Assembly: GCA_963826715.1 (NCBI GenBank)
Contig: CAWGYA010000007.1
Coordinates: 32,001-96,000 of the forward strand
Reading direction: 5' to 3'
Length of the DNA stretch: 64,000 nt
Origin: Candidatus Bathyarchaeota archaeon
GTDB taxonomy: Archaea; Thermoproteota; Bathyarchaeia; Bathyarchaeales; Bathycorpusculaceae
Part shown: positions 32,327 to 59,335 of the stretch, piece after piece
Layout of the letters: each line of letters opens with the position of its first letter
How positions within the stretch are numbered: position 1 is the first letter of the stretch
Translations under genes and position numbers: made by a program
Notes under the pieces: generated by a model
What the model was told of the DNA's origin: nothing
What the model saw: the letters and a program-made list of their open reading frames with translations, nothing else
Databases searched by the model: none

Positions 32327-32349
32327 TGGTGAGGCCGCTGGGATTTGAA
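32327..32349 (-). repeat. att-like site: 3' end of a tRNA (T arm + acceptor + CCA)
   Basis: Minus strand TTCAAATCCCAGCGGCCTCACCA; tRNA similarity stops abruptly; 70 bp after the integrase. Confidence 0.8.
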
Positions 32350-32455
32350 GGTGGCCGAGTTGGCGACTTAGGGATTTCTCATCGCCACACTATCTGCTTA
32401 AGCTCCGCAGCCTTCTTCCCTTTTTTTGTTCTCTCAGATGCAAATTGGCTAGGAG

Positions 32456-32707
32456 ATGATAAGCATGAGTCAAGAAGTCAAATGTCCAGAATGCGAAGGC
32501 AAAGGTACAGTTATGGGCGTAGAACTGACAGAGGTAAGATGCTTAAGGTGTTTTGGCCGTGGAGTCATTGTCTTTCATCCGGGTGTAAAGTGCCCTCAAT
32601 GCGGTCAAATCAAAGTTTGGAAACATTCAAAACGTCGAACGCCGACAGGACAAATAAAACAACGCTATTTATGTTCAGAGTGCGGCCTTCGTTTTACAGA
32701 GAAATAA
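32456..32707 (+). CDS. double zinc-finger protein
   Basis: CPECEGKG, CLRCFGRG (DnaJ-type) plus CPQCG...RYLCSECG. Confidence 0.75.
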   Translation: MISMSQEVKCPECEGKGTVMGVELTEVRCLRCFGRGVIVFHPGVKCPQCGQIKVWKHSKRRTPTGQIKQRYLCSECGLRFTEK

Positions 32708-32756
32708 TTGGCTACCTTTTTTCTTTTTTCGACCATTCCATTTGGAGGTCGCTATC

Positions 32757-32900
32757 TTGAACCAGAAGCAGATAGAAGCTTCCGCTGTTATGCTTCAAGT
32801 TTTCCTATCCGGCTTAGCGCTTAATTTCGACGCAGATTTCCATGAGCTTGAGGAAATTACCAAGCGTGCCCTGCTTCACATAGAACAGGAGGACCGCTAG
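32757..32900 (+). CDS. small viral hypothetical protein (47 aa)
   Basis: GGAGG SD + TTG; MNQKQIEASAVMLQVFLSGL...EQEDR. Confidence 0.45.
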   Translation: MNQKQIEASAVMLQVFLSGLALNFDADFHELEEITKRALLHIEQEDR

Positions 32901-32943
32901 TGTTCTACTCAGTAAATCCAAGTAACGAGAGGAGAGACTACAG

Positions 32944-33495
32944 ATGAGCAATAAAGTTAGTTTTGTTCTAAATCGCAATCCGCCCTACATGGATACGACC
33001 GTTCCTTATGAACGGACTAAAGCGGAAATTGAGATTCTGCTAAAAAGCTACGGGATAAAGAACATTCGCTGGACCACCCTTGAAGGCCAGGATGATACTT
33101 TAGAGTTCATCATTGACGCTGAAGTGCAGGGTGTCAAGAAGCAACTAGGCGTCGCAGTTAAGCCTCCCCATATAATCCTCAAAAAGAAACTTCATGGCAA
33201 ACTGGTCGATACTGAGAACATTAACCAGGAGTACCGGCTGCTGTTTCATTGGATAAAAAGCAAGATTGAAGCGGTCGTTTGGGGTCTTAGCACAATCGAG
33301 AAGGAATTTCTCAGCGAGGTCTTGATGAAACTGCCCAATGGTCAGCAGTCAACAGTTGGCGAGGTGGTCGTAAATTTGATGAGCAAAGATTCGCTGCAGA
33401 GCTTGCCTTTCTACAGTTCCCGACAGAGCGAGATTCCTCGCCGGCTAATCGAGCTTGAAGTTTTGCCCTCGGAAGATAATTCGGGAGGTTCCTAG
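32944..33495 (+). CDS. viral hypothetical protein
   Basis: TTVPYERTKAEIEILLKSYG...RLLFHWIKSKIEAV, resembling a recurrent phage early-region family. Confidence 0.65.
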   Translation: MSNKVSFVLNRNPPYMDTTVPYERTKAEIEILLKSYGIKNIRWTTLEGQDDTLEFIIDAEVQGVKKQLGVAVKPPHIILKKKLHGKLVDTENINQEYRLLFHWIKSKIEAVVWGLSTIEKEFLSEVLMKLPNGQQSTVGEVVVNLMSKDSLQSLPFYSSRQSEIPRRLIELEVLPSEDNSGGS

Positions 33496-33496
33496 T

Positions 33497-33799
33497 TTGG
33501 GTTATTTTCGTATGGGTCCTCGGAATATTCTTGAGCCTTTGCTTGAGCAGGCTGCTTTAGAGGAGCAGTCGCTGGGTGCTCCTGCAAAAAAGACGTTGCT
33601 TGAAATTGCAGAGCTACTGGTTCGGTGGGCGCCTAACTTGTATAGCAGCTACAGCAACTCATGTTATTCTGACGAGGAGAAGAATGCTGCTAAAGGGTTG
33701 CTGAAAAAGTATGATTTAGAGAAGCTATCTAATTTGAGTCCCCGATACAAGAAGCCCACTCTAGAACTCATAGAGAAATTAAAAGCGGAGCAACTTTAG
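33497..33799 (+). CDS. viral hypothetical protein
   Basis: TTG right after the upstream stop with GGAGG SD. Confidence 0.55.
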   Translation: MGYFRMGPRNILEPLLEQAALEEQSLGAPAKKTLLEIAELLVRWAPNLYSSYSNSCYSDEEKNAAKGLLKKYDLEKLSNLSPRYKKPTLELIEKLKAEQL

Positions 33800-33811
33800 G
33801 AGCTGCGTTTT

Positions 33812-34755
33812 TTGGTTGAAGCATCTGATAACACCGCCAACACCCCTACCAACAGGTGTTGCAACAGTTGGCACCCCTTAAAACCCAGAGGCATAGAAGC
33901 ACTAACATATCAGATTATCGATGCTTCAGAAGTTGAGCTTAAACCATGTGAGATAGCCCGAAAGATCCATGCTCCACGCAAGCCAACACCAGGTCAGTAT
34001 TCCACCGTTCGCTTTTTCTGCTCCAAATTGCTGCAAAAAGGCCTGATCATTCAGCCTTACCCTGGAGCATACTGCAACAAAATCACCTACGGGGTGCGGT
34101 TCGTGCCGCTCTCAGTGCACAACATTAGCTTGCGCAGTTTTGTCTGTCAAGATGTTAAGCATTGGGAGATGGATGAGTTTGTTGGGGGAGTGAAGATTCA
34201 TGTTTGTTTTGGGTCGGAGCGCCGCAAAATCAGCGGTTACCTCGCCTGTGACGTTGGAGGCATGAGCCATGACGCATGTCTGTTGGCGCTTAACCGTTGG
34301 TTTGACCTAGTCAACGACCGTTTAGGCTTCCAACTTAATGATTTGGAGATCTTAACTTTTGAGTGCAACAAAGACTACCATGGCATCAGACTGGATGGTG
34401 TTCAATGCATAACCAAAGTTGACCTTTATGGTATGGTTGAGCGGGTGTATCAGAAAGAGGAAGCCCTTGTTCGCAAGGAACGCAAGGTCACAAAGCCCAT
34501 GAGCGTAAACAGGTTTGAGCAAGCCATAGCCAAAGGTTTTGCTGACACTGAAAGGTCTCAGCATGCATTTGAGAGGTCAAACGCAACACTGAAGCATTAA
34601 AGTATACCAATAGTAGGCTTTTGCAGCTTGAACGTTTAAACGAGGCTATGTTTGGAGCTCTAACTAAGCTCAACGATGTTTTGGGTAAGCTTGGCGATTT
34701 GGGTAGCCCTGTGCCTCTTGGGAAAGGTCAGGATTCTGAGGGGTATGTTCGTTGA
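33812..34755 (+). CDS. wHTH-containing viral protein (possible replication/regulatory), frame break at ~34570
   Basis: LKPCEIARKI...KLLQKGLIIQPYPGAY wHTH; coiled-coil tail EVKRNTEALKYTNSRLLQLE...GYVR lies in another frame ending 34755. Confidence 0.55.
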
Positions 34756-34855: not shown

Positions 34856-35440
34856 GTGAGCGAGAATAAGACAACGTTGAGGGTACCTGATTTTATGAAA
34901 CCCATTCTGGAAGATATTCGGTTGTTAAAGTCAGATGGCCAGAACCCTAATCGCATGACGAATAAGCAGAAAGAAGAGTTATGGAAGAGTTTGCAGGAGT
35001 TTGGCTGGACAGACCCTATTTTGGCAGATAAGGCTGGAGTTTACGCGGATGGTGAACAGAGGGTTTCTGTTTGCATAGCGCATGGGGAGTTTTGGGCGCC
35101 TGTGTATCGTATGGCTGATTTGTCGGATGTGCAGAGGCGTCGTCTTAGGCTTATTACTAATGAGTTGAAGGGGAAGCACAATCGTAAGGATGAGGAGGCG
35201 GAGTGGCGGCGGATTATCGAATCCGGTCAGCGTAATGAGTTGAAGGGTTTGCTGGATGCGGTTGGGGAGAAGATTCCTGAAGATCTAGGTGGACCTCGGG
35301 AGGGCATGAGCATGATTCCTGAGAGTTACGAGTTGATAATTTCTGGGCGAGAAAGCAAGAATTTTGATGAGTCGACGCAAAAAGCTGCTTTTGAAAAATT
35401 TACAGCTGAAGGCTGGAAAGTGAGAGTGTTGAATCTCTAA
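34856..35440 (+). CDS. ParB/Srx-like N-terminal domain protein
   Basis: NPNRM...LWKSLQEFGWTDPILAD...DGEQR...RLITNEL. Confidence 0.8.
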   Translation: MSENKTTLRVPDFMKPILEDIRLLKSDGQNPNRMTNKQKEELWKSLQEFGWTDPILADKAGVYADGEQRVSVCIAHGEFWAPVYRMADLSDVQRRRLRLITNELKGKHNRKDEEAEWRRIIESGQRNELKGLLDAVGEKIPEDLGGPREGMSMIPESYELIISGRESKNFDESTQKAAFEKFTAEGWKVRVLNL

Positions 35441-36189
35441 TGGACTTCGACTTTACCCACACCTGGACTTCCGGTGGCACTTTTCGTGAAGAAGCTGTCA
35501 AAGGCACCTATGACTTAAAAGACGTTAAGCTTGAAAAACGGATTCGAGGCAGCATCCCCATCGAGAAAATTCAATGGCAGATCGGCGTGGTTGTTGGGAG
35601 CAGTGGCAGTGGAAAAACCAGCATTGCCAAGCAACTTTGGCCTGAAGCTTACTTTGCAGATATGCGAGAACGATATAGATGTAAGTGTTTTCTGAATGAT
35701 TTCCCCGAGGGGGTATCTGTCCTCGAGATTGGCGCCGCTTTGGGCAGTAGCGGTTTTAGTGAGCCGCCTTGTTGGCTTAAGAGTTATGGGGTGTTGAGTC
35801 AGGGTCAGAAGATGAGGGTTGATATCGCTCATGCTTTGTTGTTGCCTCAGTCTTTGGTGGTTTTTGATGAGTATACGTCGACTGTGGATCGGACTGTTGC
35901 CCAGGTAGGTTCACTGGCGATTAAACGTGCCTTGAAGCATAAGGTGGGGAAGCAGTTTATCGCTGTTACTTGCCACTTTGATGTTTTAGATTGGCTTGAA
36001 CCCGACTGGATCTATGACGTAGACAACAACACCTTTGTTGATTATACCGGTACCCTCGAGGATTCTCTGACTGGTTTTGGAACTAAAGTTGTGAGTGTAA
36101 AAAAAAACGATCTCATCCGCCCCTCGAGTTATTTATCTGTAAGTGTGGTTTATCCATGTGGAAGATGTTTAGGGAGCATCATTATCTGA
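35440..36189 (+). CDS. soluble ABC-type ATPase (no transporter partner)
   Basis: GSSGSGKT Walker A, LSQGQKMR signature, VVFDEY Walker B, VTCH H-loop. Confidence 0.9.
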   Translation: MDFDFTHTWTSGGTFREEAVKGTYDLKDVKLEKRIRGSIPIEKIQWQIGVVVGSSGSGKTSIAKQLWPEAYFADMRERYRCKCFLNDFPEGVSVLEIGAALGSSGFSEPPCWLKSYGVLSQGQKMRVDIAHALLLPQSLVVFDEYTSTVDRTVAQVGSLAIKRALKHKVGKQFIAVTCHFDVLDWLEPDWIYDVDNNTFVDYTGTLEDSLTGFGTKVVSVKKNDLIRPSSYLSVSVVYPCGRCLGSIII

Positions 36190-36593
36190 ATACTGAGCGG
36201 CTTGGCGCCGGTGTACGGTGTTATATCGCTAAGCTTGGGGATAAGCCGGTTGCGTTTATCGCTGTTGCCCATGTTAGGATGAAGGCGAATTATTATCGTG
36301 TTAGCCGACTTGTTGTCTTGCCAGATTATCAAGGCATAGGCTTAGGCAAACGGCTCCTAAGCTTCATCGCTGAACTCTACACTTCCCAAATCAACCTACC
36401 CTTCTATCTAGTTACTTCAAATCCTCAGCTTGTCCGAGGCAACATGGGGAACTGGCGTGTAAAACGTGTTGGACATGGCACAGCTGGAAGCGAAGACACA
36501 AGAATCAACTCAGAACTCACCAAAAGCAACAGCAAACGACGCCTAAGCGTAACCCTACAATACATACCTAAATTGAAATCAGGAGGTTCATAG
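36099..36593 (+). CDS. GNAT acetyltransferase, probably the C-terminal part of an ABC-GNAT fusion via -1 shift at A9
   Basis: FREHHYL, RVSRLVVLPDYQGIGLG; -1 frame open from the A run (KRSHPPLELFICKCGLSMWKMF). Confidence 0.8.
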   Translation, partial: KKKRSHPPLELFICKCGLSMWKMFREHHYLNTERLGAGVRCYIAKLGDKPVAFIAVAHVRMKANYYRVSRLVVLPDYQGIGLGKRLLSFIAELYTSQINLPFYLVTSNPQLVRGNMGNWRVKRVGHGTAGSEDTRINSELTKSNSKRRLSVTLQYIPKLKSGGS

Positions 36594-36748: not shown

Positions 36749-37267
36749 CTAAGTCGTCGTCCCAGAATCGGTCTCGTGCGCCCTATGGTCGTTATCTGTC
36801 ACCGTTTGGTCGAAAGCTTTTGAATAATATGCGTACGATGGAAAATTTGTAATTTGCAGTGGTGCTATACAAATATCAAAATACTCTATTTCTCTAAGAT
36901 TTTGGACAGTTTTAACGATACTATTGAAGTCCTCGATATCTGTACATATCGCTTGAACTAGCAAATCAAAGTCGCCCATTGTGTGAGTAGCAACAATGAC
37001 ATTTTGGACATGACTAATTTTTTCAAAAAATTCCTTCGCGTCGGTGTCAGGGCAAAGTTTTATGAAAAATAATACGGATTGCTTGAAACCGCATCTTTTT
37101 AGATCTATGGTTATTGAAGCTCGCTGGATTATCCCTTCTTTTTTCAGCGCATTGTATCTTCTAATAACGGTATCTGTCCCGATGCCGAGACTTTCCGCTA
37201 TATTGCTAAATGGTTGCTGCGCGTTTTTTAGTAAACAGTTTATTATTTGTCGGTCTATTTTGTCCAA
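36749..37267 (-). CDS. Lrp/AsnC family regulator
   Basis: MDKIDRQII..L..NAQQPFSNIAESLG HTH, GDFDLLV RAM domain. Confidence 0.9.
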   Translation of the reverse strand: MDKIDRQIINCLLKNAQQPFSNIAESLGIGTDTVIRRYNALKKEGIIQRASITIDLKRCGFKQSVLFFIKLCPDTDAKEFFEKISHVQNVIVATHTMGDFDLLVQAICTDIEDFNSIVKTVQNLREIEYFDICIAPLQITNFPSYAYYSKAFDQTVTDNDHRAHETDSGTTT

Positions 37268-37269: not shown

Positions 37270-37743
37270 CTAAGGCCTCACCAGTTTTTTAAGTGATATA
37301 TTTTCCGGTCTCGCTAGCGCCTCTTCAGGGTCGATCCAGATGCTTCCTTTTACTTGAAGAACCGCTGGGTGTCTTCTAATTTTCTCTTTTACAACTTGCA
37401 TTTCAGAAACATTTCTTAAGAAAACCCAAACAAAGATGTTGTAGGTTCCTATCGTTCCTGCAAAAAGATCTGCGCCAGGCACTTCTTTGAGGTACTCGAG
37501 GACTTCAGAAACTCGTGAAGGTATCGCTTTGATGCCCAGATTTGCAATGCAATGATAGCCAAACCGTGTTAAATCAACTTGAATTATTGATCCTGTAATT
37601 ATGCTTTTGTCTTTCAGCTTTTTAACTCGTGTACTTACGGCGTTTTTTGTGATACCTAGTTCTTTCGCATATTCCGTCAGATTTAGGCGAGCATCCATTT
37701 GTAGAGCTCTTATCAAAGCGATATCTGTTTCGTCGATCGTCAT
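37270..37743 (-). CDS. Lrp/AsnC family regulator
   Basis: IDETDIALIRALQMDAR, GTYNIFV; start moved to MTIDE. Confidence 0.9.
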   Translation of the reverse strand: MTIDETDIALIRALQMDARLNLTEYAKELGITKNAVSTRVKKLKDKSIITGSIIQVDLTRFGYHCIANLGIKAIPSRVSEVLEYLKEVPGADLFAGTIGTYNIFVWVFLRNVSEMQVVKEKIRRHPAVLQVKGSIWIDPEEALARPENISLKKLVRP

Positions 37744-37940
37744 TCTGAACCATAATGCCTTTGCTTTAGCGTCGTATAAATCTTTGCAACAGAAAATAGC
37801 ATCTATCTTAAAGAAAAACTTGATTTTGTGTGACATTTTCGCATAACAATTGTAATTATACGAAAATGTTAAATAAACTTCGCAGAAGAATAGAGCATGC
37901 TGGAATATCAATAAATTGTATTTCAAGCAAAAACTAAAAA

Positions 37941-40544
37941 ATGGTGGAAAAAATGAAAAAAATAGTTACCAAAAAAAATAGTATCTTTGCAATCACTTTG
38001 CTTGTTTTACTCAGTGCTTCAATCGCAGTCAGTGCTTTTCCGCAAGTTAACGCAGCAACAACAACCGGTTCGAAACAAACCTATGTCTTTTTAGGCCTGT
38101 CACGTAATCCAATCGGCGTCGGTCAAGCAGAAATCCTAAACGTTGGAATTTCAGACCCTATACAAACAGGATATGGCTGGAAAGACCTAAGTGTAACAAT
38201 AACAAAACCTGATGGAACAACCACTAAAATCAGTGACATCACTACGGATCCTGCAGGTAGCAGCGGTGTACTCTTTGTCCCTGATCAAGCCGGCAACTAC
38301 ACTCTGCAATCCCATTTTCCCGAACAATGGTACAACTATAGCGGGTTTTCAATATTTGGGCAACCTGAAGCAACAAACATACTCTACAAAGCAAGCGACA
38401 GTCCCGTAGTTTCTCTCGCAGTTCAAGAGGAACCAATACCCGATTATCCCATTGCAGGACTGCCGACTGAATATTGGACTAGGCCAATTAACAGTCAGCT
38501 ATCAGCTTGGTATTCAATTGGCGGCAACTGGCTTGTATCTTGGGATGCTCAACCAGCTCAAAACTTCTACGTTACTGGCAATGATCAATCGCCGAGGTCT
38601 GCGCATATTCTTTGGACAAAACAGCTATCAGCAGGTGGCCTTGTTGGAGCGCCGCTCAACTATAGTGGTTATGATGTTGGCGAAGCCTACGAATACCAGT
38701 TTGCAGGCTCCATTATAATCAACGGCATTCTATACTACAACCAATATCCCAGCAGCTATGCAAGTGCAGCGAAAACACTTTGTGCGGCAGACTTACGAAC
38801 AGGCCAATTGCTTTGGACACAACCTGGAGTTTGGATGAATCGCGGTCAACTTTTTGATTTTAGTACCGAAAATCAGCATGGAACTTTTAGCTACATATGG
38901 GCAAGGAACGGAACATTTTCGATGATGGGCGCAAGTGGACCTTGGTGTGCGTATAATGCTATGACTGGCGACTGGATGTACACAATGTCAAATGTCCCTT
39001 CAGGAACTATGATGACTGGACCTAGCGGTGAAATGCTAGTTTTAGTGGTAAATCAAGCCAATGGTTGGATGGCATTATGGAATTCAAGCGCTATACCTGC
39101 ATTACGTGCTGGTGCTTACGGAACATGGCTGTGGAATCAATGGCGACCTTGGGGGAAGACAGTCGACGCTCAAGCGGTTTGTGCCGTCACGCCTGAAACA
39201 CCAATTGGAATTTCGGGTTATTCGTGGAACGTGACAATTCCAAAAGGGTTGCCTGGCAGTGTAGTTACCGCCTTCCCTGATGACTTAGTTTATGGATACT
39301 CCCGTGGTGCATCTGTGATTAACCAGGTAACGCTGCAAACTACTCCTACTGATCAATTCTATGCTTGGGCTGTAAGCTTAAACCCGCAAACACGAGGTCA
39401 ACTTCTTTGGAATAAAACTGAACCATTGCCGGCTGGAAACATTACCATCACTGCTCAGTTCGGGCCCCAAGATGCTCAATCTAGGACGTTTTGTGTCTTC
39501 CTAAAAGAGACAAGACAATGGGTTGGTTATAGTCTGGACACAGGAAATGAACTCTGGACAACCGAATCTCAGTATTACATGGATCAATACACTACTATCG
39601 GTGCAGTCTGGGGCATTAACAGTGCGATTGCTTATGGTCGTCTGTATGCGATCCACTACGGCGGTATCTTGTATTGTTATGACATTACTACAGGCAAAAC
39701 GCTTTGGACTTATGCTAACGCAGATCCATATGGCACAGAATTAAGAAATACAAACTTCCCTTCTGATATCTGCATGATAACTAACGGAATGATCGTTATT
39801 ACTCCGTCTGAATTCAATCCACTAATTCCAAGACCTCAGGGTGCATACACAGTTTGCTTAAACGCTACAACTGGACAAGTCATCTGGAAACTTAATCTGG
39901 CAGGACCCGGAGGCTCCGGAAAACCAATTATCGGCGACAATATCATCGCGGCATTCAACGAGTACGACAACCAAATCTATTCAATAGGTAAAGGACCAAC
40001 AGCTGTCAGCGTAACAGCCCCCAGCGACAGTGTCACTTTAGGAAATTCTGTAATAATTCGCGGATCTGTTACTGACATCTCGGCTGGCACTACTCAAAGC
40101 AACATTGCTCCTCGTTTTCCAAATGGTGTTCCCGCAGTCTCTGATGACAGCATGATTGAATGGATGCAATACGTCTACATGCAGCTGCCGCGCCCAACCA
40201 ACACTACCGGCGTACCAGTGACACTAAGCGTAGTCGATGCTAACGGAAACTACCGCCAAATCGGCACAACTACAACGAGTGACGGTTTCTTCACGTTTAA
40301 CTGGAAACCCGACATTGATGGACAATACACAGTGTACGCTTCTTTTGCAGGCAGTGAATCGTATTTCCCATCACAAGGAATGACCTCTTTTGCCGTTGAC
40401 CAAGCCTCATCAACACCGCAACCACCGCAACCGCCAATGCAAGGTATTGCTGACCAATACTTCATCCCGGCAATTGTAGGTCTCTTTATCTTCATTGCCA
40501 TCATCGGCGTTACAGTAATCTTAGTCCAAAGGAAACGGCCATAA
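37941..40544 (+). CDS. large secreted PQQ-like beta-propeller surface protein with Ig-like domains and C-terminal TM
   Basis: Signal peptide; repeats DLRTGQLLW, LDTGNELW, ITTGKTLW, ATTGQVIW; TM + QRKRP. Confidence 0.85.
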   Translation: MVEKMKKIVTKKNSIFAITLLVLLSASIAVSAFPQVNAATTTGSKQTYVFLGLSRNPIGVGQAEILNVGISDPIQTGYGWKDLSVTITKPDGTTTKISDITTDPAGSSGVLFVPDQAGNYTLQSHFPEQWYNYSGFSIFGQPEATNILYKASDSPVVSLAVQEEPIPDYPIAGLPTEYWTRPINSQLSAWYSIGGNWLVSWDAQPAQNFYVTGNDQSPRSAHILWTKQLSAGGLVGAPLNYSGYDVGEAYEYQFAGSIIINGILYYNQYPSSYASAAKTLCAADLRTGQLLWTQPGVWMNRGQLFDFSTENQHGTFSYIWARNGTFSMMGASGPWCAYNAMTGDWMYTMSNVPSGTMMTGPSGEMLVLVVNQANGWMALWNSSAIPALRAGAYGTWLWNQWRPWGKTVDAQAVCAVTPETPIGISGYSWNVTIPKGLPGSVVTAFPDDLVYGYSRGASVINQVTLQTTPTDQFYAWAVSLNPQTRGQLLWNKTEPLPAGNITITAQFGPQDAQSRTFCVFLKETRQWVGYSLDTGNELWTTESQYYMDQYTTIGAVWGINSAIAYGRLYAIHYGGILYCYDITTGKTLWTYANADPYGTELRNTNFPSDICMITNGMIVITPSEFNPLIPRPQGAYTVCLNATTGQVIWKLNLAGPGGSGKPIIGDNIIAAFNEYDNQIYSIGKGPTAVSVTAPSDSVTLGNSVIIRGSVTDISAGTTQSNIAPRFPNGVPAVSDDSMIEWMQYVYMQLPRPTNTTGVPVTLSVVDANGNYRQIGTTTTSDGFFTFNWKPDIDGQYTVYASFAGSESYFPSQGMTSFAVDQASSTPQPPQPPMQGIADQYFIPAIVGLFIFIAIIGVTVILVQRKRP

Positions 40545-40914
40545 ACAAACCAAACCACCTCTTTCCTTTTTTTTTATTTCCGTTAAAAAATGTGGGCTGA
40601 AAAGCTCTCGCAGATACAATATAGTTGTCAATAGAGTTTGCATTTCTCTTTCTCCTTAGGTGCCCAGAGCCTTAGCACACCACTATTTATTTTCGGTAAT
40701 TCTACCATTCAATTGAAGGAAGGTTACCCGAAAAAACCCTGGAATTTTGCTCAATATTCTTTATGCAATTGCTTAAAGGCAAGTACTAATTAGTGTAATT
40801 ATTCAAGTTAGCCTCTTGCAAGCAAGCGTTTAGTTTTCCTCGCCTCCTTAGCTGGAGCGTGAACGGTTTGCAGTGGTTTCTGTCATTGTTCATAATTTTG
40901 TTAGGGTGTTGTTT

Positions 40915-41181
40915 ATGCCTCATAAAAGAAGTTTGCATGGAAAAATTATTCAGCGACAGCGGGAGCAAGATTACGCTGTTATTAAGGTTCAGCGTACGGC
41001 GGCTTGGCAATACATTAGAGAGACTGAATTTCGCGATCGCTTAATCTGCGAGACCGTCTGTCGAATTGATATTAATACGCTAACTGATGAGTTGGCAAAG
41101 CTTTTTGGTCAGCCTGAATCTGAAGCTGTTCCTAACGTTGAGCAGGGTTTAGTTCTTGATGGTCCGTTAAGGGAGCTTTGA
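40915..41181 (+). CDS. viral hypothetical protein
   Basis: MPHKRSL... first gene of the late operon; GGGTG SD. Confidence 0.5.
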   Translation: MPHKRSLHGKIIQRQREQDYAVIKVQRTAAWQYIRETEFRDRLICETVCRIDINTLTDELAKLFGQPESEAVPNVEQGLVLDGPLREL

Positions 41182-41441
41182 TTCTGATGCCTGAAGAGTC
41201 ACATCCTGACTATAGCCTATGCCCCAGTTGCCCTGAGATCAAGCGCAAGATTGACCGTATAGATTTGGCTCTTTTGGGTGAGGATGGCACTGGCTTAAAC
41301 GGCGGCATTGTTAGGGCTATTACGGATTTGCAAAAGAAAAATAAGGTTTCGGCAAGTTGGGCAAGTTTTGCAAAACCCATCGCAATTGCTGTTGTCACGT
41401 CAATTGTGACTTTTCTGTTAACTTACGCTTTAGCTCATTAA
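41178..41441 (+). CDS. coiled-coil + C-terminal TM protein (holin/XhlA-like candidate)
   Basis: IKRKIDRIDLALLGEDG...single C-terminal TM. Confidence 0.5.
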   Translation: MILMPEESHPDYSLCPSCPEIKRKIDRIDLALLGEDGTGLNGGIVRAITDLQKKNKVSASWASFAKPIAIAVVTSIVTFLLTYALAH

Positions 41442-41459
41442 TTTAGGAGAGGAGATTGT

Positions 41460-41917: not shown

Positions 41918-41930
41918 GGAGTATGGTTTT

Positions 41931-50583: not shown

Positions 50584-50587
50584 TTCT

Positions 50588-52210: not shown

Positions 52211-53205
52211 GTGAGTTAGAAGATCCCGTAGCTACCTTGTTGAGGCTGATTAATAGTCGAATTCGAATAACCAAAGACAACGGTGATGCTGCTAAGTTGT
52301 TGGCTACGGAGGCAGCGTTTGACCGCGAAATACTGCTCAAAGAGTATGACGCCCAAATTACTCTTCAAGTTGACCCTGTTTTAGGCGTTCAAGACCAAAA
52401 GCTAAACCTTTCTGGTAGCAAAAGGCGTTTGGTGCATTTCTTCAAGTGCACGGTTCACTCTATCGATAAGACTGCTCCTGGTGCTGATGTAGGCAGGGTC
52501 ATGCGCAACAAGGTCACTGAGCAGATTAAAGCGATTATCCGCGAGAACAGAACCTTGCCCTATGAGACGGCTTATAATTTTGCTGGGCTCGGCTATCCAT
52601 CAGGTGACCCGCATAAGGCGTATTCTGTGGGTGCCGCCTCGGAGTTGGCGCCGTCCGCTGCGGGTTGGGCTGAGCTTTCAGCTGTGGGTTATCAAGACAT
52701 TTGGTACAGCAACAATGTCCGCTATTCTAAGAGTGCAGCCGTTAACAATCAGTATGGCTTGATGTTGTTTAGGTTCAAGGTTGGGTCTAGAGAGCAATGC
52801 GTCAAGTCTTTGGTGCTGAGTTTTGAAGGCTATGGCACTGCACCTGGTGGCAACGGTGTAACGGTTAAGGTTTGGAATCATGTCACGGGTGCTTGGCAGT
52901 ATGCGCAATATGGAACCGCAGCCGCAGACGAAGCCCTGGCAATTACGATTTCGGCGAACTGGACAGATTACGTGGACTCTGACGACTATGTTTGGATGAT
53001 TGCCCGAACCACAAATCCCAGCAACGGCATAACCCCCGCCGTGCTCCACTGTGACTTTGTGCAGTTGATCGTTCAGGTTCGGGGAATCACTAACTGCGAC
53101 GTCGTGAGCTACAAGCTCATAGATGTTGTTGAGGTTAAGCCGTTTCTCTTCAAAACTGAGTTGGTATTGAAGGGTTGGGCTTTTGAGGACATAACTTTAG
53201 GCTAA
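52207..53205 (+). CDS. tail terminator-like protein with inserted beta-sandwich
   Basis: Directly precedes the tail tube; N- and C-terminal alpha/beta halves flank an aromatic-rich insertion. Confidence 0.5.
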   Translation: MSELEDPVATLLRLINSRIRITKDNGDAAKLLATEAAFDREILLKEYDAQITLQVDPVLGVQDQKLNLSGSKRRLVHFFKCTVHSIDKTAPGADVGRVMRNKVTEQIKAIIRENRTLPYETAYNFAGLGYPSGDPHKAYSVGAASELAPSAAGWAELSAVGYQDIWYSNNVRYSKSAAVNNQYGLMLFRFKVGSREQCVKSLVLSFEGYGTAPGGNGVTVKVWNHVTGAWQYAQYGTAAADEALAITISANWTDYVDSDDYVWMIARTTNPSNGITPAVLHCDFVQLIVQVRGITNCDVVSYKLIDVVEVKPFLFKTELVLKGWAFEDITLG

Positions 53206-53220
53206 TGGAGTATGCAAAGA

Positions 53221-54090
53221 ATGGTTGAAACCTATAGCGCAGACCAAGAACGCATCTACTACATAGCGGAAGCAACCAAAGGCACAACGCCAACAGTGAC
53301 ACCCGCAATGCTTGGAGTGCCCCATGAATCAATCAACCCAGGCTTTAACCCGAGCAATCTGCTGCTGCGAAGCGGCGGAAACTATGACCTCTTTGCCATC
53401 AAAAAAGGCGTTCGCGTGCCCTCTCTCAAAGTTGCCTATATTGTGCCCTCGGCAGCGCCGATCGACCTGTTGCAATACACCAAGATAGACCTGGATAAGA
53501 CCTTGAGCGTTCAAGCATTATACTATAAAGGCTCTTGGGCATCAGCAACCGACATCATTTCACTGCTATACAACTACATGCGGATTGGCAAGGCCAGCGT
53601 TACCTGCGAAATTGATGATGTTCTCAAAGCCAGTCTGGAAATGGTAGGTCAGAACCTCATTACGGGCACGGCAAAACTGACTGATGCAACTTACACGGAT
53701 TATGCGGGTGCAGTGGCATTCAACGAAACCGATGTTACCATTGGGGGAGCTGCAAACGATCGGGTTGTAAGCTGGAAATTCGACGTAAACAACAATCCTA
53801 AACAGGTGCCCGTTATCCGCAGCACCAACGGCTATCTAGCCAAATACATTCCTTTTGGCAATCGGCAACTAAGCGGTGAAGTTCGCTTTGAGTTTGAGAG
53901 CAAAGCAGAGATGGACAATGCCCTCGCTGATACCGAGTTCAACATTCGTTTTGGGCTTGGCGGTACCGCGTATGCTCAGATGGAGGCGGCCAAATGGAGT
54001 AACATAACCAGCGAGAAGTGGCTTGACGACTTAATCGCGGTTAGGGCACAGTTTGACGCAAAAGGACCGCTTAGCATAGCGGCAAGCTAA
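53221..54090 (+). CDS. tail tube (major tail) protein
   Basis: YIAEATKGTTP, VVSWKFDVNNN, GNRQLSGEVRFEF. Confidence 0.8.
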   Translation: MVETYSADQERIYYIAEATKGTTPTVTPAMLGVPHESINPGFNPSNLLLRSGGNYDLFAIKKGVRVPSLKVAYIVPSAAPIDLLQYTKIDLDKTLSVQALYYKGSWASATDIISLLYNYMRIGKASVTCEIDDVLKASLEMVGQNLITGTAKLTDATYTDYAGAVAFNETDVTIGGAANDRVVSWKFDVNNNPKQVPVIRSTNGYLAKYIPFGNRQLSGEVRFEFESKAEMDNALADTEFNIRFGLGGTAYAQMEAAKWSNITSEKWLDDLIAVRAQFDAKGPLSIAAS

Positions 54091-54103
54091 TGGTGATCTA
54101 AAA

Positions 54104-54627
54104 ATGGAGACTGCAAAAGTAAAAATCGATAAGCGTTTTGGCGAGCAATTTGTAGGCGACTATGAATTCCGCCAAATTACCCAGGGAGAATACGAGCGGG
54201 TACTCGTTAGCTATATGGATTCAGCGGGCAAAGTTCCAAAAACGGATATTCTCAAAGTTAACCGGGAATGCCTCTGGATGTCACTTGTTAGCCAGCCCGC
54301 CTCAAAACCTCTCTTTAAAGACCTCATAGTTCAAGGGCGACTCCCCTATGGTCTCAGCTTAAAGTTGCAGGAAGTCTACGATAACGTCAATGGCATTGAG
54401 ATGGATGAGCAGCGTTTTTTATCATCGCCATTCGAGGAAAACGACCAAACCCAAGGCTCACAAAGTTCGTTATGTGTGAGCGATTCGGCTGGACAGAGCA
54501 AGAATACAATGCCACAAGCAGACAGACAATTGTAGAGTTCTCCACTATCTTGCGAACTTTAGATGAGATGGCAGAAGGCGAAGCAAAAAAAGCAGAACAG
54601 GAAAAAAGAAAATGTCCGTCGAAGTAG
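54104..54627 (+). CDS. tail assembly chaperone G (to 54535) and GT (-1 frameshift, to 54627)
   Basis: T TTT TTA at 54415-54421; -1 frame gives ...FVMCERFGWTEQEY...CPSK*. Confidence 0.8.
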
Positions 54628-54980
54628 ACTTTGATATTCAAGGTGTGGACGAATTTGTTGCGGCAATGCAGCGCCTTGACAAGGCTATGCAGGAGAGGGT
54701 CCGCGTTTGGCTCTACGATTGGGCGCAGCGATTAGTTGCTGAGGCGAAACGTAGTGCTCCTGTACGCACGGGTTATCTTCAAAGCAAAATCTACGCTATG
54801 GCACATGAATGGGTCGTAGAAATTGGAGCAGGGGCAGCTTATAGCTACTTTGTGGAATTCGGCACCCGCTACATGTCTGCTCACCCATTTCTGTATCCTG
54901 CAGTGCAAGCGTTTCTTCCCGAGTTAGAGACTAACATCGTAGGTGCCATTGAGCAAGCAAAAGCGGAGGCTGGATTGTGA
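54612..54980 (+). CDS. HK97 gp10-like tail completion protein
   Basis: AKRSAPVRTGYLQSKI, YSYFVEFGTRYMSAHPFLYPA. Confidence 0.9.
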   Translation: MSVEVDFDIQGVDEFVAAMQRLDKAMQERVRVWLYDWAQRLVAEAKRSAPVRTGYLQSKIYAMAHEWVVEIGAGAAYSYFVEFGTRYMSAHPFLYPAVQAFLPELETNIVGAIEQAKAEAGL

Positions 54981-55519
54981 GTTTTAGAGAAATAACCCTA
55001 TCTATTCGGGCAATCAACCGAGCAAGCAGCGAGTTTAATCGTATTCAAACAGACGCCGAACTTATGACAGCCCGCATCAAAAGCTTTGGAGCTGCCCTAG
55101 CTGGCATAGGCGCAGCAGGCACAGCCATCGGATACCTGGCTAACCAATTTGGGATTTTAAACGATGAGCAAACCAAAGTCTTCACAGGCACCATGATGCT
55201 TGTCTCAGTTATGGGCATGTTTCTGCGTACAAGCACCGGGTTAGCCGTAGCCCAAAAAGTCTATGCCGCCGCTTGCGCGTTTGCAACGGCAATCCAAAAC
55301 GCCCTAAACATCAGTTACGCAACCTTCCTGGCGCTTACTGGTGTGGGCATTGCTGTGATTGCCGCTGCCGCTGTAGCTATGTATGCCTTCGCCAGTAGCA
55401 TGAATACAGCAACGGCAAGCGTGCAGAACTTTAATGCTTCGGCAGCCGAGACGCCGACCAGAGTTAAAGGCATTACTCGTGCAGGAGACGCTGAGCTTGC
55501 TAGGCGAGGGATTGAGTAA
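54977..55519 (+). CDS. very short tape-measure-like protein
   Basis: ITLSIRAINRASSEF N-terminus typical of TMPs; Ala/Gly-rich hydrophobic helices; LTGVGIAVIAAAAVA. Confidence 0.65.
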   Translation: MSFREITLSIRAINRASSEFNRIQTDAELMTARIKSFGAALAGIGAAGTAIGYLANQFGILNDEQTKVFTGTMMLVSVMGMFLRTSTGLAVAQKVYAAACAFATAIQNALNISYATFLALTGVGIAVIAAAAVAMYAFASSMNTATASVQNFNASAAETPTRVKGITRAGDAELARRGIE

Positions 55520-57904
55520 ATGTCCACCGCTACCCCAAGTATCGCCTTAGTTTTTGGCGCCATAGCCCCTCCACAAGCCGATGTCGTTGAGCTTCTGGTG
55601 CATTTAGGCTGTAGTAAAGAAGTCAGCAGCTACGACATCACATTGCACAATCATAATGGCAAGTACAGCCCAAACGGCGCTTACCCCATAACCGTGGGGA
55701 TGGATGGCTCAATTAGCTTAGGGCGAACGCCCAATTGCCCGTTGCTTATGACGTTGCGGGTTGAAAAAGTCCACTATCAAAGCTCGCCTATAGAAAGCTA
55801 CTTGACTGTTTCTGGGCGCTGCTGGGGTGAGCGGCTGTTTCGGCGAGTAGTTACGGCAACTTATTCGGGCTTGAAGGGCGAGGAAATTGTTAAGGACCTG
55901 ATGGATTATTATGCGGGTCTTAGCCACAATAGAAGCGGCGTTGAACTCGTCGAAAACACAGACACGCCCTATACAGAGCTCAAACCCGAGGATTCACCTC
56001 TCTGGGACATACTCAAGTACGTTGCCGAATCAGCCGACAAAGCAGGCATAATAGGCTATGATTTTCGGGTTGCACCTGACGGCAAATTCGAGTTTTTCCC
56101 CAAACTCTCCAAAACAAACTCCACTGTAATCACCGAAAACATCGATACTACTGCAGAGTACGAAAAAGACATCACTCGCGTAAGAAACAAAGTTGTCGTC
56201 TACGGCTTAGCCGACAAAAGCTATCCTTCAAACAAAGTTGACTGGACAAATAGCCTAACGCCTTCGGATGGTTCTTGGAGCGGCTCAATAGGCACAGCAA
56301 GTCTTGACGCAACCGCAAACCCCACTGGCGGCGCTTGCATAAAACTCTCTGTTACCAGTAACTACGTAGGAGTGGTTGACCTTGACCTCGCTGCAGGCCA
56401 TGAAGTTAACTTTGATGCCTACCCCGTTCTGGATTTGCAGCTAAAAATTCAGGACACCTTTGCAGGAACAGGCTTCATTCTGCTAATGGACACTACAGGC
56501 AAATTTGCCTCCAAAACCATCTCTATTTCTCCAGACGAAGCCTTTCACGTTTTTGAGACTGGCGCTGGGTCGGCTTATGTTAATCAATGGGAGCGGGTTG
56601 ACTTAGGCTTTAATTGGGTTGCCGTCCAGAAAATTAGGGTTTCACTTGGCTTTTCAGGTGTTGGTAGCGGAAACTTTTGGGTCTATGCCCTCTACGCTGG
56701 GGGTCGCCGCTACTCTGGCGTTGCCGAAAGCACACCAAGCCAAACTGCCTATGGTCTGCGGGAATATGTGGAGGTTGATGAGGAACTTTGGAGCGATAGC
56801 GAATGTATTAGGCGGGCGTCTGCGCTTTTGGCGTATCTCAAAGACCCCGCCGAGCACTTGCACATAGTTAGCACCGTTTTAGATTATGGGACGTCGCCGA
56901 TTAAGGCAGGCGATAAAGTACACGCAGAGCTCCCAACGGAGGGCGTCAACAGTGACTTTAGAGCTGAAAGCGTTGAGTATCGGGTGCCAAAAGAGGACCC
57001 AACAAAGCTGGAAATAACTTTGGAGCTTGGCAAGGAACCGCCGCACCTAGCCGATTACCTCTATGGTCTACGTACCCACACGCCTAACGTTGAGAAGCTC
57101 AGCAGAACAAAGCTTGGCAAAAGAGGCGCTCCAATCGCCACGGGCGGCAGTGTATTAGGTGCCTCTCGGTTTACAACAAACGTTGAAGTCGATAAAACCT
57201 CCCCCGCGTTTAACTTGTTTATTTCAGGCGTTCATAAGGCTGCGTTTGGGCATGATGGAGCGAACACTTTTTTGGCAGCCATGGCGGGCGATCTTATTTT
57301 GGAATCAGCCATAAATCATTTAATCCGCCCCAACAGCGACGGCAGCGACGACCTTGGCAATGGTACCTTCCGCTTTGGCTCAGCGCACTTGAAGAATAAT
57401 CTATTTGTGGCCGGCGGGGAAGTAATCGCCAACACAGGCAGAATTAACATGTGGTCGATGCCGCGAGATACCTCTGGTTTGGTGCTTGAAGCCCAGGGAG
57501 CAGGCAACTATCCTATGTATGTAGACCCCAACGGCAGATATGCACCCGCCGCCCACAATCACGCCAACATGTACCCTGCAGGAGGAAACAATACCGGGTC
57601 ATGTGGGGACACATCGACTTATTGGCATGTGGTTGCAGGCGATAGCGTCTGGTACAATGCCCTTGGACACATGGACATGATAGATGACCTAGCTGCCATC
57701 AAGAAAATAAAACCCAGTGAAAGGACCGACAAAAAGGGTGTACCGTTAATTGATGCTAACTCTCTGCCTGAAGAGGTGCGATCTGGTGAGGGTTTAATTC
57801 ATGCTGGTCATTTGATGGGTCTAGCTCTGGGCGCTATCAGACAATTGAACGCTAAAGTTGACACTTTAGAAAAAGAGCTAAAGATGCTGCGGTGTGCTCA
57901 ATAG
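55520..57904 (+). CDS. tail-tip hub fused to fibre/receptor-binding region and C-terminal intramolecular chaperone (S74-like)
   Basis: Hub motifs SGRCWGERL, GYDFRVAPDGKFEF, NKVVVYG, YGLRE; C-terminal DDLAAIKKIKP...LPEEV...GAIRQLNAKVDTLE. Confidence 0.75.
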   Translation: MSTATPSIALVFGAIAPPQADVVELLVHLGCSKEVSSYDITLHNHNGKYSPNGAYPITVGMDGSISLGRTPNCPLLMTLRVEKVHYQSSPIESYLTVSGRCWGERLFRRVVTATYSGLKGEEIVKDLMDYYAGLSHNRSGVELVENTDTPYTELKPEDSPLWDILKYVAESADKAGIIGYDFRVAPDGKFEFFPKLSKTNSTVITENIDTTAEYEKDITRVRNKVVVYGLADKSYPSNKVDWTNSLTPSDGSWSGSIGTASLDATANPTGGACIKLSVTSNYVGVVDLDLAAGHEVNFDAYPVLDLQLKIQDTFAGTGFILLMDTTGKFASKTISISPDEAFHVFETGAGSAYVNQWERVDLGFNWVAVQKIRVSLGFSGVGSGNFWVYALYAGGRRYSGVAESTPSQTAYGLREYVEVDEELWSDSECIRRASALLAYLKDPAEHLHIVSTVLDYGTSPIKAGDKVHAELPTEGVNSDFRAESVEYRVPKEDPTKLEITLELGKEPPHLADYLYGLRTHTPNVEKLSRTKLGKRGAPIATGGSVLGASRFTTNVEVDKTSPAFNLFISGVHKAAFGHDGANTFLAAMAGDLILESAINHLIRPNSDGSDDLGNGTFRFGSAHLKNNLFVAGGEVIANTGRINMWSMPRDTSGLVLEAQGAGNYPMYVDPNGRYAPAAHNHANMYPAGGNNTGSCGDTSTYWHVVAGDSVWYNALGHMDMIDDLAAIKKIKPSERTDKKGVPLIDANSLPEEVRSGEGLIHAGHLMGLALGAIRQLNAKVDTLEKELKMLRCAQ

Positions 57905-58038
57905 TAACTGGCTGGCACAAAAGATTCCGCAATACGTCGAAGAAAAATGAACTGCTCGGTTATGTCGATTGCTTAGTTAAGGTTTCTTGACGAAAACACC
58001 TATAAAACGAAAGCGTTCTATCAATCTTCAGATAAAAC

Positions 58039-58980
58039 ATGAGAGCACATATTGCTTTACTTACGATCTGTCTCATTGTCTCTCTTTCAAGCCTTGCACT
58101 ACCTGTTAAAGCTCAAGAATTAGAACCGCTCAACCTAACAATCAAGCCAGATGGAAGCATTGAACCAGACACCGATGTTATTTGGCTTCAAAGAAACGGA
58201 AGCACATACACCTTTGTAGTAGATATTCTTGCTACCATAACAGTTCAAAGAGCAGGAATTACAATAGACGGAGCAGGACATACCCTTCAAGGCAACTCCA
58301 AATCATCAGGCCTCGGAGGGATAAATTTGGTTGGACATGACGAGACATTCAACGCTTACGGCAACGTCTTAGTGAAGAATCTTCGAATCATCGATTTCTT
58401 TGAAGGCATACGCACCCCCTCAAATAACAACAGCTTCATCGGCAACCGCTTTGAGAACACACGCATCCACATCCTGGGGGGACCAGCAGGAAACGTCGTA
58501 AAAAACAACTTTTTCATAAACTCAGAAATTTTTGTCGATTACAACTACGGAGGACACGATGCCATAACTGAAAACAACTTCTTTGACAGCAACATACTTG
58601 TTGATTTAGCGGATCCACCATCTGTGGATAGGAATTACTGGAGCAACTACACAACCAAATATTCTAACGCCACCCAAGTTGAAGGGCTGGGAATCTGGAA
58701 CACACCCTACGTAGATGATACTTACGCGTGGGCAACTGGCAGAAGTATTGACTACCATCCGTTAGTCAGCCCAATAACCGATTTCAAGATTCCCAACTTT
58801 GGCATCCTTGCAATGCCGACTTTGACACCTTACCCAACTATTAATACTGGTCCAGAGCCACCCAAGACAGACTTTCTTCTACCAATCTTAGTCATAGCCT
58901 CCATAGTGGCAGTGGCTGCTTTGGGTGCGGGTTTGATAGTTTATAGAAATAAACGTAAACATGTCTTAGCCGCTGGATAA
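58039..58980 (+). CDS. cargo: secreted NosD-like beta-helix surface protein
   Basis: Signal peptide, TIKPDGSI, ITIDGAGHTLQG, NYWSNY, DYHPL, C-terminal TM. Confidence 0.8.
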   Translation: MRAHIALLTICLIVSLSSLALPVKAQELEPLNLTIKPDGSIEPDTDVIWLQRNGSTYTFVVDILATITVQRAGITIDGAGHTLQGNSKSSGLGGINLVGHDETFNAYGNVLVKNLRIIDFFEGIRTPSNNNSFIGNRFENTRIHILGGPAGNVVKNNFFINSEIFVDYNYGGHDAITENNFFDSNILVDLADPPSVDRNYWSNYTTKYSNATQVEGLGIWNTPYVDDTYAWATGRSIDYHPLVSPITDFKIPNFGILAMPTLTPYPTINTGPEPPKTDFLLPILVIASIVAVAALGAGLIVYRNKRKHVLAAG

Positions 58981-59140
58981 TATTCCTTCTATCTTACAGT
59001 ATTTCGTTAGCTGACATTTTTCGTAGGACTTTTTTTGGTGCGAGCTGAGCGATTGCTCTTCTTCCCTCATGGAACTTAAATTTCGAATTCTAATTTTGAT
59101 CTGATTTTTCCTGTTAATGCTTCTTGGAGGTGAGTTTTGT

Positions 59141-59335
59141 TTGGTTGATGAGATAGAGGTATCTGAGAATAAGGAAGCCCTGATCGTTTTGGCTGGCACC
59201 GTTGCGGGTGCTGCTACTTCGTTTGTTGCTTCTTTGCCGATTCCGCTGGAGATTAAGGCTCCGGCTGCTGCGTTAGCATCCACTGTGACGGGTGCGATTC
59301 TGCTTTACTGGAAAAACAAAGTTAACAAGCAGTAA
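59141..59335 (+). CDS. small two-TM protein (holin candidate)
   Basis: GGAGGTGA SD + TTG; two TMs, basic C-terminus; poly-T terminator follows. Confidence 0.5.
   Translation: MVDEIEVSENKEALIVLAGTVAGAATSFVASLPIPLEIKAPAAALASTVTGAILLYWKNKVNKQ

Follow-up and report, generated by a model that had tools for sequence, protein, structure and literature searches.

The locus described here raises the question of whether a run of head and tail genes in an archaeal genome amounts to one integrated virus, where such a virus begins and ends, and how it stands to the head-tailed viruses already described from the same class of archaea. Bathyarchaeia are abundant and uncultured, and to our knowledge no virus of theirs has been isolated. 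The stretch analysed (the window) comprises 64,000 nucleotides and corresponds to positions 32001-96000 of contig CAWGYA010000007.1 (C7) of the Candidatus Bathyarchaeota archaeon assembly GCA_963826715.1, a 2.64-Mb genome in 8 contigs with a completeness of 96%; positions are those of the window unless a contig is named. We call the studied element provirus A, its sister at C7:151978-193182 provirus B, and a third provirus, on contig C5, provirus C. Provirus A is very probably a temperate virus of the head-tailed kind (Caudoviricetes) that has integrated its genome of about 39.3 kb into the chromosome of a Bathyarchaeia archaeon, and it has relatives that swap modules with it. That a provirus lies here had been proposed in a first-pass annotation, and the proposal is borne out by hallmark genes, protein folds, repeated attachment (att) sites, an integrase and a patchy occurrence among genomes.

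A generic repeat search for att sites gave nothing useful, and the sites were found by comparison with the tRNA-Pro(GGG) gene at C7 c[193160-193238]. The last 23 bases of this gene recur at C7:151978-152000 and at C7:64325-64349 (window 32325-32349), and in shortened form within C7:103574-103619. The features that define the ends are these.

32327-32349, + strand: attL of A, a 23-nt core with 22 of 23 bases equal to the tRNA-Pro(GGG) 3' end, its first 16 nt found exactly at the far end
Window-equivalent 71604-71619 (C7:103604): attR of A, an exact 16-mer core just past the integrase
Window-equivalent 70258-71553 (C7:102258-103553), outside the window: integrase of A, 431 aa, full length, PF00589 at 3.6e-20
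C7:191841-193109: integrase of B, 422 aa, full length, with PF00589
31563-32255, + strand: truncated tyrosine integrase left of attL, 230 aa, 5'-truncated, PF00589 at 3.7e-20

Direct att repeats are thus present at both ends of A. By exact-match count, the 16-mer with A at its sixth base occurs in the 2.64-Mb genome only at C7:64327 (window 32327) and C7:103604, and the version with G at that base only at C7:151978 and C7:193160, the ends of provirus B, so that each pair of variants brackets one provirus. Provirus A extends from 32327 to window-equivalent position 71619, about 39.3 kb, of which the last 7.6 kb lie past the window end, and provirus B (41.2 kb) runs from C7:151978 into the intact tRNA-Pro gene at its right end. 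The left end given earlier, 32327, coincides exactly with the start of the att core, but the right end, 59335, proved to be only the end of a stretch in which A and B are highly similar (32327-59357). The element had also been called near-complete. That description fits the 39.3-kb element as a whole, but not quite the interval 32327-59335, from which the integrase, the second att and some 12 kb of cargo and regulatory genes are missing; these lie to its right and in part past the window end.

The integrases of A and B lie inside the right-hand core, consist of an N-terminal Zn-ribbon region and the PF00589 domain with its R...HxxR...Y residues (read by eye), and are each preceded by a CopG-like gene. 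The 230-aa integrase aligns with the last 216 aa of the 431- and 422-aa proteins at about 70% identity, about 190 N-terminal residues being gone, and has a spacer of its own left of attL; judging from this comparison it is the relic of an earlier or tandem element and not the integrase of A. A split SSV-type integrase with its N-terminal half at the other end was considered and ruled out, since the full-length paralogues show simple truncation and the integrase of A is at the right end. There is no tRNA in the window, and A is not inserted into an intact tRNA gene; its core matches tRNA-Pro(GGG), the target of B. Because no tRNA body follows the right core, provirus A appears to have integrated into an att left by the relic integrase and to sit there beside the truncated gene. 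A comparison with empty sites gave no answer, the flanks being about 70% identical and not syntenic in the 5 same-genus genomes examined. In another genome (G074), a block of CopG-like gene, integrase and att, 91% identical to that of A, is spaced from a capsid gene (96-97% identical) just as in A, and segments of the right arm of A follow in the same order after a second near-identical provirus.

Between 41.9 and 57.9 kb the order in A is TerL, portal, scaffold, cement protein, HK97-fold capsid, tail tube, gp10-like protein, short tape-measure-like protein and hub. Direct family scans covered 37 ORF (open reading frame) products against Pfam and PHROG. The packaging and head genes are the following.

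41871-42509, + strand: small terminase (TerS) candidate, assigned by position only, directly upstream of TerL
42349-43857, + strand: TerL, phrog_979 at 2.2e-92, PF17289 at 1.7e-8, PF03237 at 2.2e-5
44001-45344, + strand: portal, 214 homologues, most with PF04860; no direct family match
46930-47985, + strand: scaffolding protein, 351 aa, conserved N-terminal domain and C-terminal coiled coil
47987-48451, + strand: cement/decoration protein, 154 aa; 12 of 27 family members match PF09956 Phage_cement_2, best E 2.9e-11
48453-49406, + strand: major capsid protein, HK97 fold, 158 homologues, many with PF25209/PF05065; no direct family match

The ATPase and nuclease domains expected of TerL are both found (PF03237 and PF17289), a Walker A motif was seen by eye, and a TerL of the phrog_979 type is present in a single copy in the host genome. 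If each is read from its first start codon, the TerS candidate runs 161 nt into TerL, in another frame. The family matches of TerL begin at residues 16-51, and its true start may be internal. The scaffold is present in 32 of 73 related loci and 2 of 21 members of its family match PF06810 Phage_scaffold; against the PDB, its family profile found coiled coils only and a phmmer search with the protein itself was uninformative, as was the family profile of the cement protein, which in A has no direct family match. NCBIfam gave nothing further on the structural genes, and the TerS candidate matches no family in Pfam, PHROG or NCBIfam.

The folds of capsid and portal were modelled with AlphaFold2 and compared with the PDB using Foldseek. 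The capsid model (33-sequence alignment; predicted local distance difference test, pLDDT, 82.3; predicted TM score, pTM, 0.78) has 385 PDB matches at E<=0.001, mostly HK97-fold capsids and encapsulins, headed by the HFTV1 capsid 8qpq (E 1.5e-12) and followed by encapsulins and phage capsids. The portal model (31-sequence alignment, pLDDT 76.4) matches the G20c portal at E 2.9e-10 and then the HFTV1, P23-45 and HK97 portals, and one portal homologue is named 'phage portal protein [Candidatus Bathyarchaeota archaeon]'. Both proteins therefore pass the fold check that the first-pass annotation had set as a way to refute its identification, and provirus A combines the HK97-fold capsid, portal, TerL and tail genes that place an element in the Caudoviricetes.

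The neck and tail genes continue on the same strand.

50224-53205, + strand: neck-position genes for a connector candidate (119 aa) and two proteins of 546 and 332 aa, assigned by position only
53212-54090, + strand: tail tube, PF18906 at 3e-15, phrog_290 at 3.4e-16
54104-54535, + strand: tail assembly chaperone candidate, 143 aa, by position only, 79-85% identical in B and C
54612-54980, + strand: HK97 gp10-like tail-completion/neck protein, PF04883 at 8e-10, phrog_5 at 7.8e-22
54977-55519, + strand: tape-measure-like protein, 180 aa, rich in Gly/Ala and hydrophobic stretches, by position and composition only
55520-57904, + strand: tail hub/tail-tip protein, 794 aa, phrog_400 at 5.1e-5; PF24032 YQBQ-like at 2.3e-4, below cut-off; VgrG-related at 0.008

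This module is odd in several respects. The neck slot holds the 546-aa and 332-aa proteins and not small adaptor proteins, and the gp10-like gene lies after the tube gene and not before it. The Atlas clusters closest to the 546-aa protein are hypothetical proteins of viruses (scores 0.98 and 0.94), and the protein also has a weak C5-epimerase-type match. The 332-aa protein has 328 relatives; its residues ~120-330 recur in proteins of 1000-4000 aa and in one Mu gp48-like tail protein, and its C-terminal ~200 residues appear as repeats in the giant proteins. The chaperone candidate matches no family in Pfam, PHROG or NCBIfam. The tape-measure-like protein is 94-97% identical in B and C and has 180 aa in all three proviruses, and 193 aa in two more distant tail modules. 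Tail length scales with the tape measure at 0.15 nm per residue, and 180 aa would give a tail of about 27 nm, under 30 nm. A tape measure of a length matching a long tail was not found, the 180-aa protein being the single candidate. The description as siphovirus-like is plausible in that there is a tube and no sheath family occurs among the matches of the 37 proteins, though two large proteins encoded upstream of the tube, of 546 and 332 aa, have no assigned role; since the candidate tape measure implies a tail below 30 nm, we keep the term as a working label only.

All ORFs from 41871 to 57904 on the + strand are intact and long, and gaps or overlaps of 1-14 nt separate them at 47985/47987, 48451/48453, 50583/50570, 52210/52207, 54980/54977 and 55519/55520. 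More broadly, the stretch from 32 to 58 kb consists of long + strand ORFs with gaps of a few bases or overlaps of 4-14 bases. The full morphogenesis operon of intact long ORFs announced in the first-pass annotation is therefore present and tightly packed from TerL to hub, but it is interrupted by two genes, at 45383-46789 (+) and 49430-50050 (-).

The host genome contains an archaeal small-subunit ribosomal RNA (1478 bits). Its elongation factor aEF-2 shares 87-90% identity with three proteins that bear the name Candidatus Bathyarchaeia archaeon, and among the 120 relatives listed three of the four that carry an organism name are Bathyarchaeia, the fourth being a partial protein on a 3.4-kb contig labelled bacterium. 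The names carried by these aEF-2 relatives support the assignment of the host of provirus A to Bathyarchaeia, as does the origin of most related capsid loci, of which 35 of 44 are titled Bathyarchaeota or Bathyarchaeia; the host proposed at the outset is upheld. A crude k-mer script found no CRISPR array in the host genome.

Provirus A belongs to a kind of element that is already described, the head-tailed proviruses of Bathyarchaeia. Few viruses of the class have been characterised, as was noted earlier, yet head-tailed ones are in print: PMC11705971 reports 38 head-tailed proviruses of archaea, among them eight from Bathyarchaeia, these being of 10-55 kb with five at 38-41 kb (Table S3), and PMC10848311 proposes the families 'Fuxiviridae' and 'Kunpengviridae' for Caudoviricetes of Bathyarchaeia. 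One of the eight, JADHWN010000002@37657-78454 (40,798 bp; contig of locus L021), shares with A the host class, the head-tailed type, a size of about 39-41 kb and integration. At the sequence level its capsid is 56%, its portal 47% and its scaffold 36% identical to those of A. Only 4 of 42 ORFs of A find a match in it at E<=1e-3 (ATPase, portal, scaffold and capsid), and nothing in it matches the TerL, the tail module, both arms or the integrase of A. By the rule given in PMC11705971, an orthologous fraction of <20% separates families, and since 4 of 42 lies below this value, provirus A falls outside the family of the JADHWN010000002 provirus.

Fuxivirus, as presented in PMC10848311, resembles A in host class, virus class, small size (31,982 bp) and possession of an HK97-like capsid, portal, TerL and tail tube. 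The Fuxivirus3 contig was not among the 28 capsid and 44 portal loci recovered from IMG/VR by a pattern-based scan, which is a weak test. The nearest deposited TerL proteins are those of the Methanobacterium phages psiM2 and psiM100, at 37.5% and 35.9% identity over 96%; these viruses have an archaeal host and siphovirus morphology. When the capsid and the portal of A were searched by tblastn against the 50,697 phage records deposited, psiM2 and psiM100 included, nothing was found at E<=0.01. At the level of the models, the HFTV1 virion offers the best match to the capsid (8qpq, E 1.5e-12, TM 0.58-0.62) and is among the best for the portal (8qsy/8qqn), but at 12-14% sequence identity this is a likeness of fold, and HFTV1 infects a haloarchaeon. 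Provirus A possibly represents a family-level lineage of its own, on a gene content compared with one of the eight published Bathyarchaeia proviruses, and the 2026 archaeal provirus surveys (PMC13573593, PMC13465236) may already hold A or close kin.

The closest relatives of provirus A are in the same genome. Counted by tblastn over 42 provirus ORFs, B has 30 of them, its head genes being 86-96% identical, and agrees with A in gene order and att core; all ORFs common to A and B align at full length without stops. The TerL genes differ: that of B encodes 435 aa and belongs to phrog_2 as against phrog_979 in A, and homology between the two proviruses breaks at 42352 and resumes at 43826. Residues 3-166 of the TerS candidate are 80% identical to B and the homology ends at 42352, inside the candidate, so that the cassette exchanged consists of TerL and the final ~50 residues of TerS. 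B also lacks the beta-helix gene, the Lrp pair and the 867-aa beta-propeller of A. Provirus C has 13 of the 42 ORFs. In its tail block the identity to A is 85-97%, with the connector candidate at 66% and the hub at 76%, and for most tail genes C is closer to A than the block of B is. No match to the terS, TerL, portal, scaffold or capsid of A was found in C, which has a Terminase_6C match of its own. Two further tail modules have 46-68% identity. Taken together, the alignments indicate that these are mosaic relatives that swap modules, A having the head of B, the tail of C and a TerL cassette of its own.

The DNA between A and B holds a 478-aa integrase abutting the attR of A, a Dnd-type DNA-modification island and a minus-strand head-tail element. 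Mobile elements thus seem to be piled up along the 129 kb between the relic integrase and tRNA-Pro. The integrase-bounded island (C7:103669-122600) encodes DndB (3.5e-123), candidates for DndC (of the PAPS-reductase type) and DndD (SMC-like), a DndA-like class-V aminotransferase, a helicase and a Schlafen AlbA_2 protein, and looks like a DNA phosphorothioation defence island. In the head-tail element on the - strand at C7:123000-141000, TerL (PF03237), tube (PF18906) and capsid (PF05065) are recognisable and the 1281-aa hub carries a GH5 cellulase domain and InlB-type repeats; here TerL adjoins the hub, and the gene order is permuted relative to provirus A.

Outside its host, the capsid gene of A was found patchily. 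It is present in 9 of 61 same-genus genomes, the host included, and 2 of the other 8 have a full-length copy at >=59% identity. Among named species genomes it occurs in 44 loci, which besides the 35 titled Bathyarchaeota or Bathyarchaeia comprise 4 of Nitrososphaeria (30-31% identity) and 5 with other labels. A genome of another species (L017) has copies 93-99% identical at the protein level, and 28 IMG/VR contigs carry the gene at <=62% identity. The five other labels, which are titles of metagenome-assembled genomes, are Alphaproteobacteria (L016), Krumholzibacteriaceae (L026), Patescibacteria (L033), Aenigmatarchaeota (L039) and Methanocellales (L046). The capsid protein of L016 is 97% identical to that of A. 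Errors of binning are likelier for these loci than host ranges of such breadth.

Evidence from populations was sought in assembled contigs of public sequencing runs, among which run X1 holds 0.73 of the sampled words and is possibly from the source sample. A contig of X1 over 32011-32349 (depth 6.0) ends at the end of the core and has two continuations. The first leads into the provirus (32327-32619, depth 2.7). The second is a 43-nt contig of depth 3.35, the last 13 letters of which, compared by eye, are those of the tRNA-Pro body adjoining the core at C7:193183. This join of the A-variant core to a tRNA body is absent from the assembly by exact match, and for this reason the one short, low-depth contig is a hint that some X1 molecules carry the relic integrase, att and tRNA-Pro with nothing between. 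The junction would reflect either a strain without the 129-kb array or a deletion from att to att.

If provirus A is a temperate virus as proposed, its integrase would have recombined a phage attP with a tRNA-like core with the relic att beside the older truncated integrase, and on induction the reverse reaction would free a circle. TerS and TerL would then package the DNA through the portal into a scaffold-built, cement-stabilised head of the HK97 type, which would join a non-contractile and probably short tail, while genes for surface-anchored proteins and regulators would be expressed as cargo from the lysogen. A fuller picture can be drawn, which we hold to be tentative and rather doubtful as a whole: a family-level lineage with a tail of ~27 nm, polysaccharide-acting (alpha/alpha-toroid-like) and adhesin-like domains in the neck, about a third of the genome given to proteins of the host envelope, and module swaps (TerL with the tail of TerS; the tail block) within a polymorphic 129-kb tRNA-Pro pile.

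Several observations weigh against an active temperate virus. The attR of A retains 16 of 23 core bases and no tRNA gene follows it, which might hamper excision; no excised or circular form and no attP was seen in the public-run contigs, and the X1 junction, which comes from one 43-nt contig of depth 3.35, drops the whole 129 kb and not A alone. Neither a replication protein nor a convincing lysis gene was recognised in the Pfam, PHROG and NCBIfam scans, a holin-like match being below cut-off. The roles of connector, chaperone, tape measure and TerS follow from position, with composition in the case of the unusually short tape-measure candidate. Finally, as the host assembly is of metagenome type with 8 contigs, and A, B and C have kilobase stretches in common at 80-97% identity, these stretches could, on the sequence alone, have been mis-joined in the assembly.

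Some of these observations are what one would expect of a cryptic provirus, complete on paper but locked, for example by its degraded right att, no longer inducible and kept for the benefit of its cargo. That reading is unlikely in our view. It gains from the shortened attR without a tRNA body, from the missing replication and lysis functions, from the want of an excision product of A alone and from the neighbouring truncated integrase, which shows that elements do decay at this site. It has to contend with shared ORFs that are full length when set against B, with a full-length integrase, with att cores that are identical over 16 nt down to a private variant, and with the 93-99% identical copies in the genome of another species, which point to recent spread.

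It is very unlikely that the interval holds two or more independent elements, that is, a small integrative element at 32.3-36.6 kb, host genes at 36.7-40.5 kb and a separate structural cluster. The idea arises from base composition and gene content. The contig has a G+C content of 0.40-0.42; within the window, G+C climbs from ~0.38 to 0.45-0.50 between ~32 and 58 kb and dips to 0.40 at 36-39 kb. The Lrp pair and the 867-aa protein look like host genes and are missing from B, and at four places in the genome the ParB-ATPase-GNAT trio stands without the head or tail genes of A. Against it, left arm, late operon, right arm, integrase and att stand in the same order in B and in another genome, and the whole lies between one identical pair of att cores. 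That the element is a domesticated particle system, of the gene-transfer-agent or tailocin type, is highly improbable: the partial tail modules elsewhere in the genome (C7:126725-135708, C5:76579-82237) and the very short tape-measure-like protein would suit it, but the element has its own integrase and att sites and a full-size TerL, its size suits a head-full of its own DNA, and it is patchy (9 of 61 genomes) with a hint of presence and absence between strains, whereas known gene-transfer agents are vertically inherited and without integrases.

A temperate head-tailed virus thus remains the preferred reading of provirus A. An intact-looking provirus that is well delimited by defined att sites provides a host-linked reference for reading metagenomic viromes, and with its ends known exactly, excision can be tested by polymerase chain reaction (PCR) or read mapping. 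The sister elements document module exchange within one genome, and the X1 contig hints that the whole pile of elements at tRNA-Pro is perhaps polymorphic in nature. The principles of archaeal tailed viruses are unchanged by provirus A.

The remaining genes of provirus A make up its two arms, the start of the late operon and the insertions within it.

32456-32707, + strand: left-arm Zn-ribbon protein, with weak Zn-ribbon Pfam matches
32944-33495, 33455-33799 and 33812-34600, + strand: predicted left-arm ORFs, no assigned role; phrog_17260 at 1.8e-10 for 32944-33495
34856-35440, + strand: ParB-like protein, phrog_620 at 5.5e-16
35440-36189, + strand: ABC-type ATPase-like protein, phrog_11143 at 1.2e-47
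36156-36593, + strand: GNAT acetyltransferase, phrog_11143 at 2.9e-27, PF00583 at 4e-9
36749-37267 and 37270-37926, - strand: two Lrp/AsnC regulators, PF13404/PF01037, not in B
37941-40544, + strand: beta-propeller protein, 867 aa, hydrophobic N- and C-terminal segments, PF13360 at 3.8e-11, not in B
40873-41917, + strand: late-operon leaders (a 102-aa ORF, an 87-aa protein and a winged-helix protein), 78-93% identical in B
45383-46789, + strand: inserted beta-helix gene, 468 aa, right-handed beta-helix, PF13229 at 6e-13, hydrophobic N- and C-termini, Pro/Thr-rich linker
49430-50050, - strand: membrane protein gene (moron) within the structural operon, with a 71% identical copy at the same place in B
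58039-59335, + strand: end of the block shared with B, a 313-aa protein with hydrophobic N- and C-termini and a 72-aa membrane protein, 89% and 94% identical in B
59357-64000 and on to the CopG-like gene, integrase and attR past the window, mixed strands: right arm, cargo and regulatory genes, many with hydrophobic N-terminal segments

Copies of the left-arm genes at 32456-34600 are found in B at 51-93% identity; for the 262-aa left-arm protein the Atlas gave only leads below 0.9, bar one unnamed archaeal cluster. The trio of ParB-like protein, ATPase and GNAT occurs at 7 sites in the genome (window 34856-36593, C7:154603-156250, C5:156302-158009, C2:410169-411765, C4:10086-11658, C8:470320-471799 and C8:600382-601981). 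ATPase and GNAT together match a single PHROG (phrog_11143, 357 positions), in two overlapping frames in A and C and as separate matches elsewhere, an arrangement that may be either a conserved split or a programmed frameshift. Among the late-operon leaders, the 87-aa protein has a C-terminal membrane segment and the holin-like match mentioned above (PF16083 at 5.9e-5, below cut-off), and the winged-helix protein matches PF14947 at 3.4e-10.

The 867-aa protein, of the PQQ_2 type with Ig-like C-terminal domains, has >=15 near-full-length paralogues in the genome at 34-42% identity and is, on this likeness, a provirus-borne member of a large family of host surface proteins. For the 468-aa beta-helix protein there is no homologue in B, in the rest of the genome or in 73 related loci, B having 326 nt at the corresponding place; it is likely a cell-surface protein and not part of the virion. 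The membrane protein at 49430-50050 matches no family in Pfam or PHROG. On reading the translations, at least 3 products within 32327-59335 and 6 in the right arm begin with a hydrophobic segment and several also end with one, which suggests that they are proteins of the cell envelope made by the lysogen. The segment at 57950-59357 is 87% identical to C7:178820-180216, and its last 230 nt occur twice on contig C6 and, at 84-95%, in several same-genus genomes, so that it is more widespread than the remainder of provirus A.

To the left of the relic integrase, a decayed histidine-kinase gene (30877-31365) retains readable HAMP and HisKA domains and a frameshift near 31262, and its homology to ~15 paralogues ends at about 31365. 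It was considered as an integration target and ruled out, there being no remnant of the kinase C-terminus (HATPase_c) on the contig; it is a decayed neighbour. Over 32324-32525, contigs of an RNA library run, X14, from a wetland metagenome are 99-100% identical at a depth of ~11 and span both the att core and the first part of the Zn-ribbon gene. They differ in the left flank, and the same left end therefore occurs in another context elsewhere; for the same reason they were set aside as evidence of transcription. In the right arm, the Rfam DUF3800-X RNA is found at 60199-60270 on the - strand (67.1 bits against a gathering threshold of 38.2), upstream of a 93-aa ORF at 59828-60109 on the same strand. 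The conserved 90-nt stretch at 60178-60269 had been considered as a missed tRNA, which was ruled out as it corresponds to this RNA; ~90 nt of the region are 87-92% conserved in several same-genus genomes.

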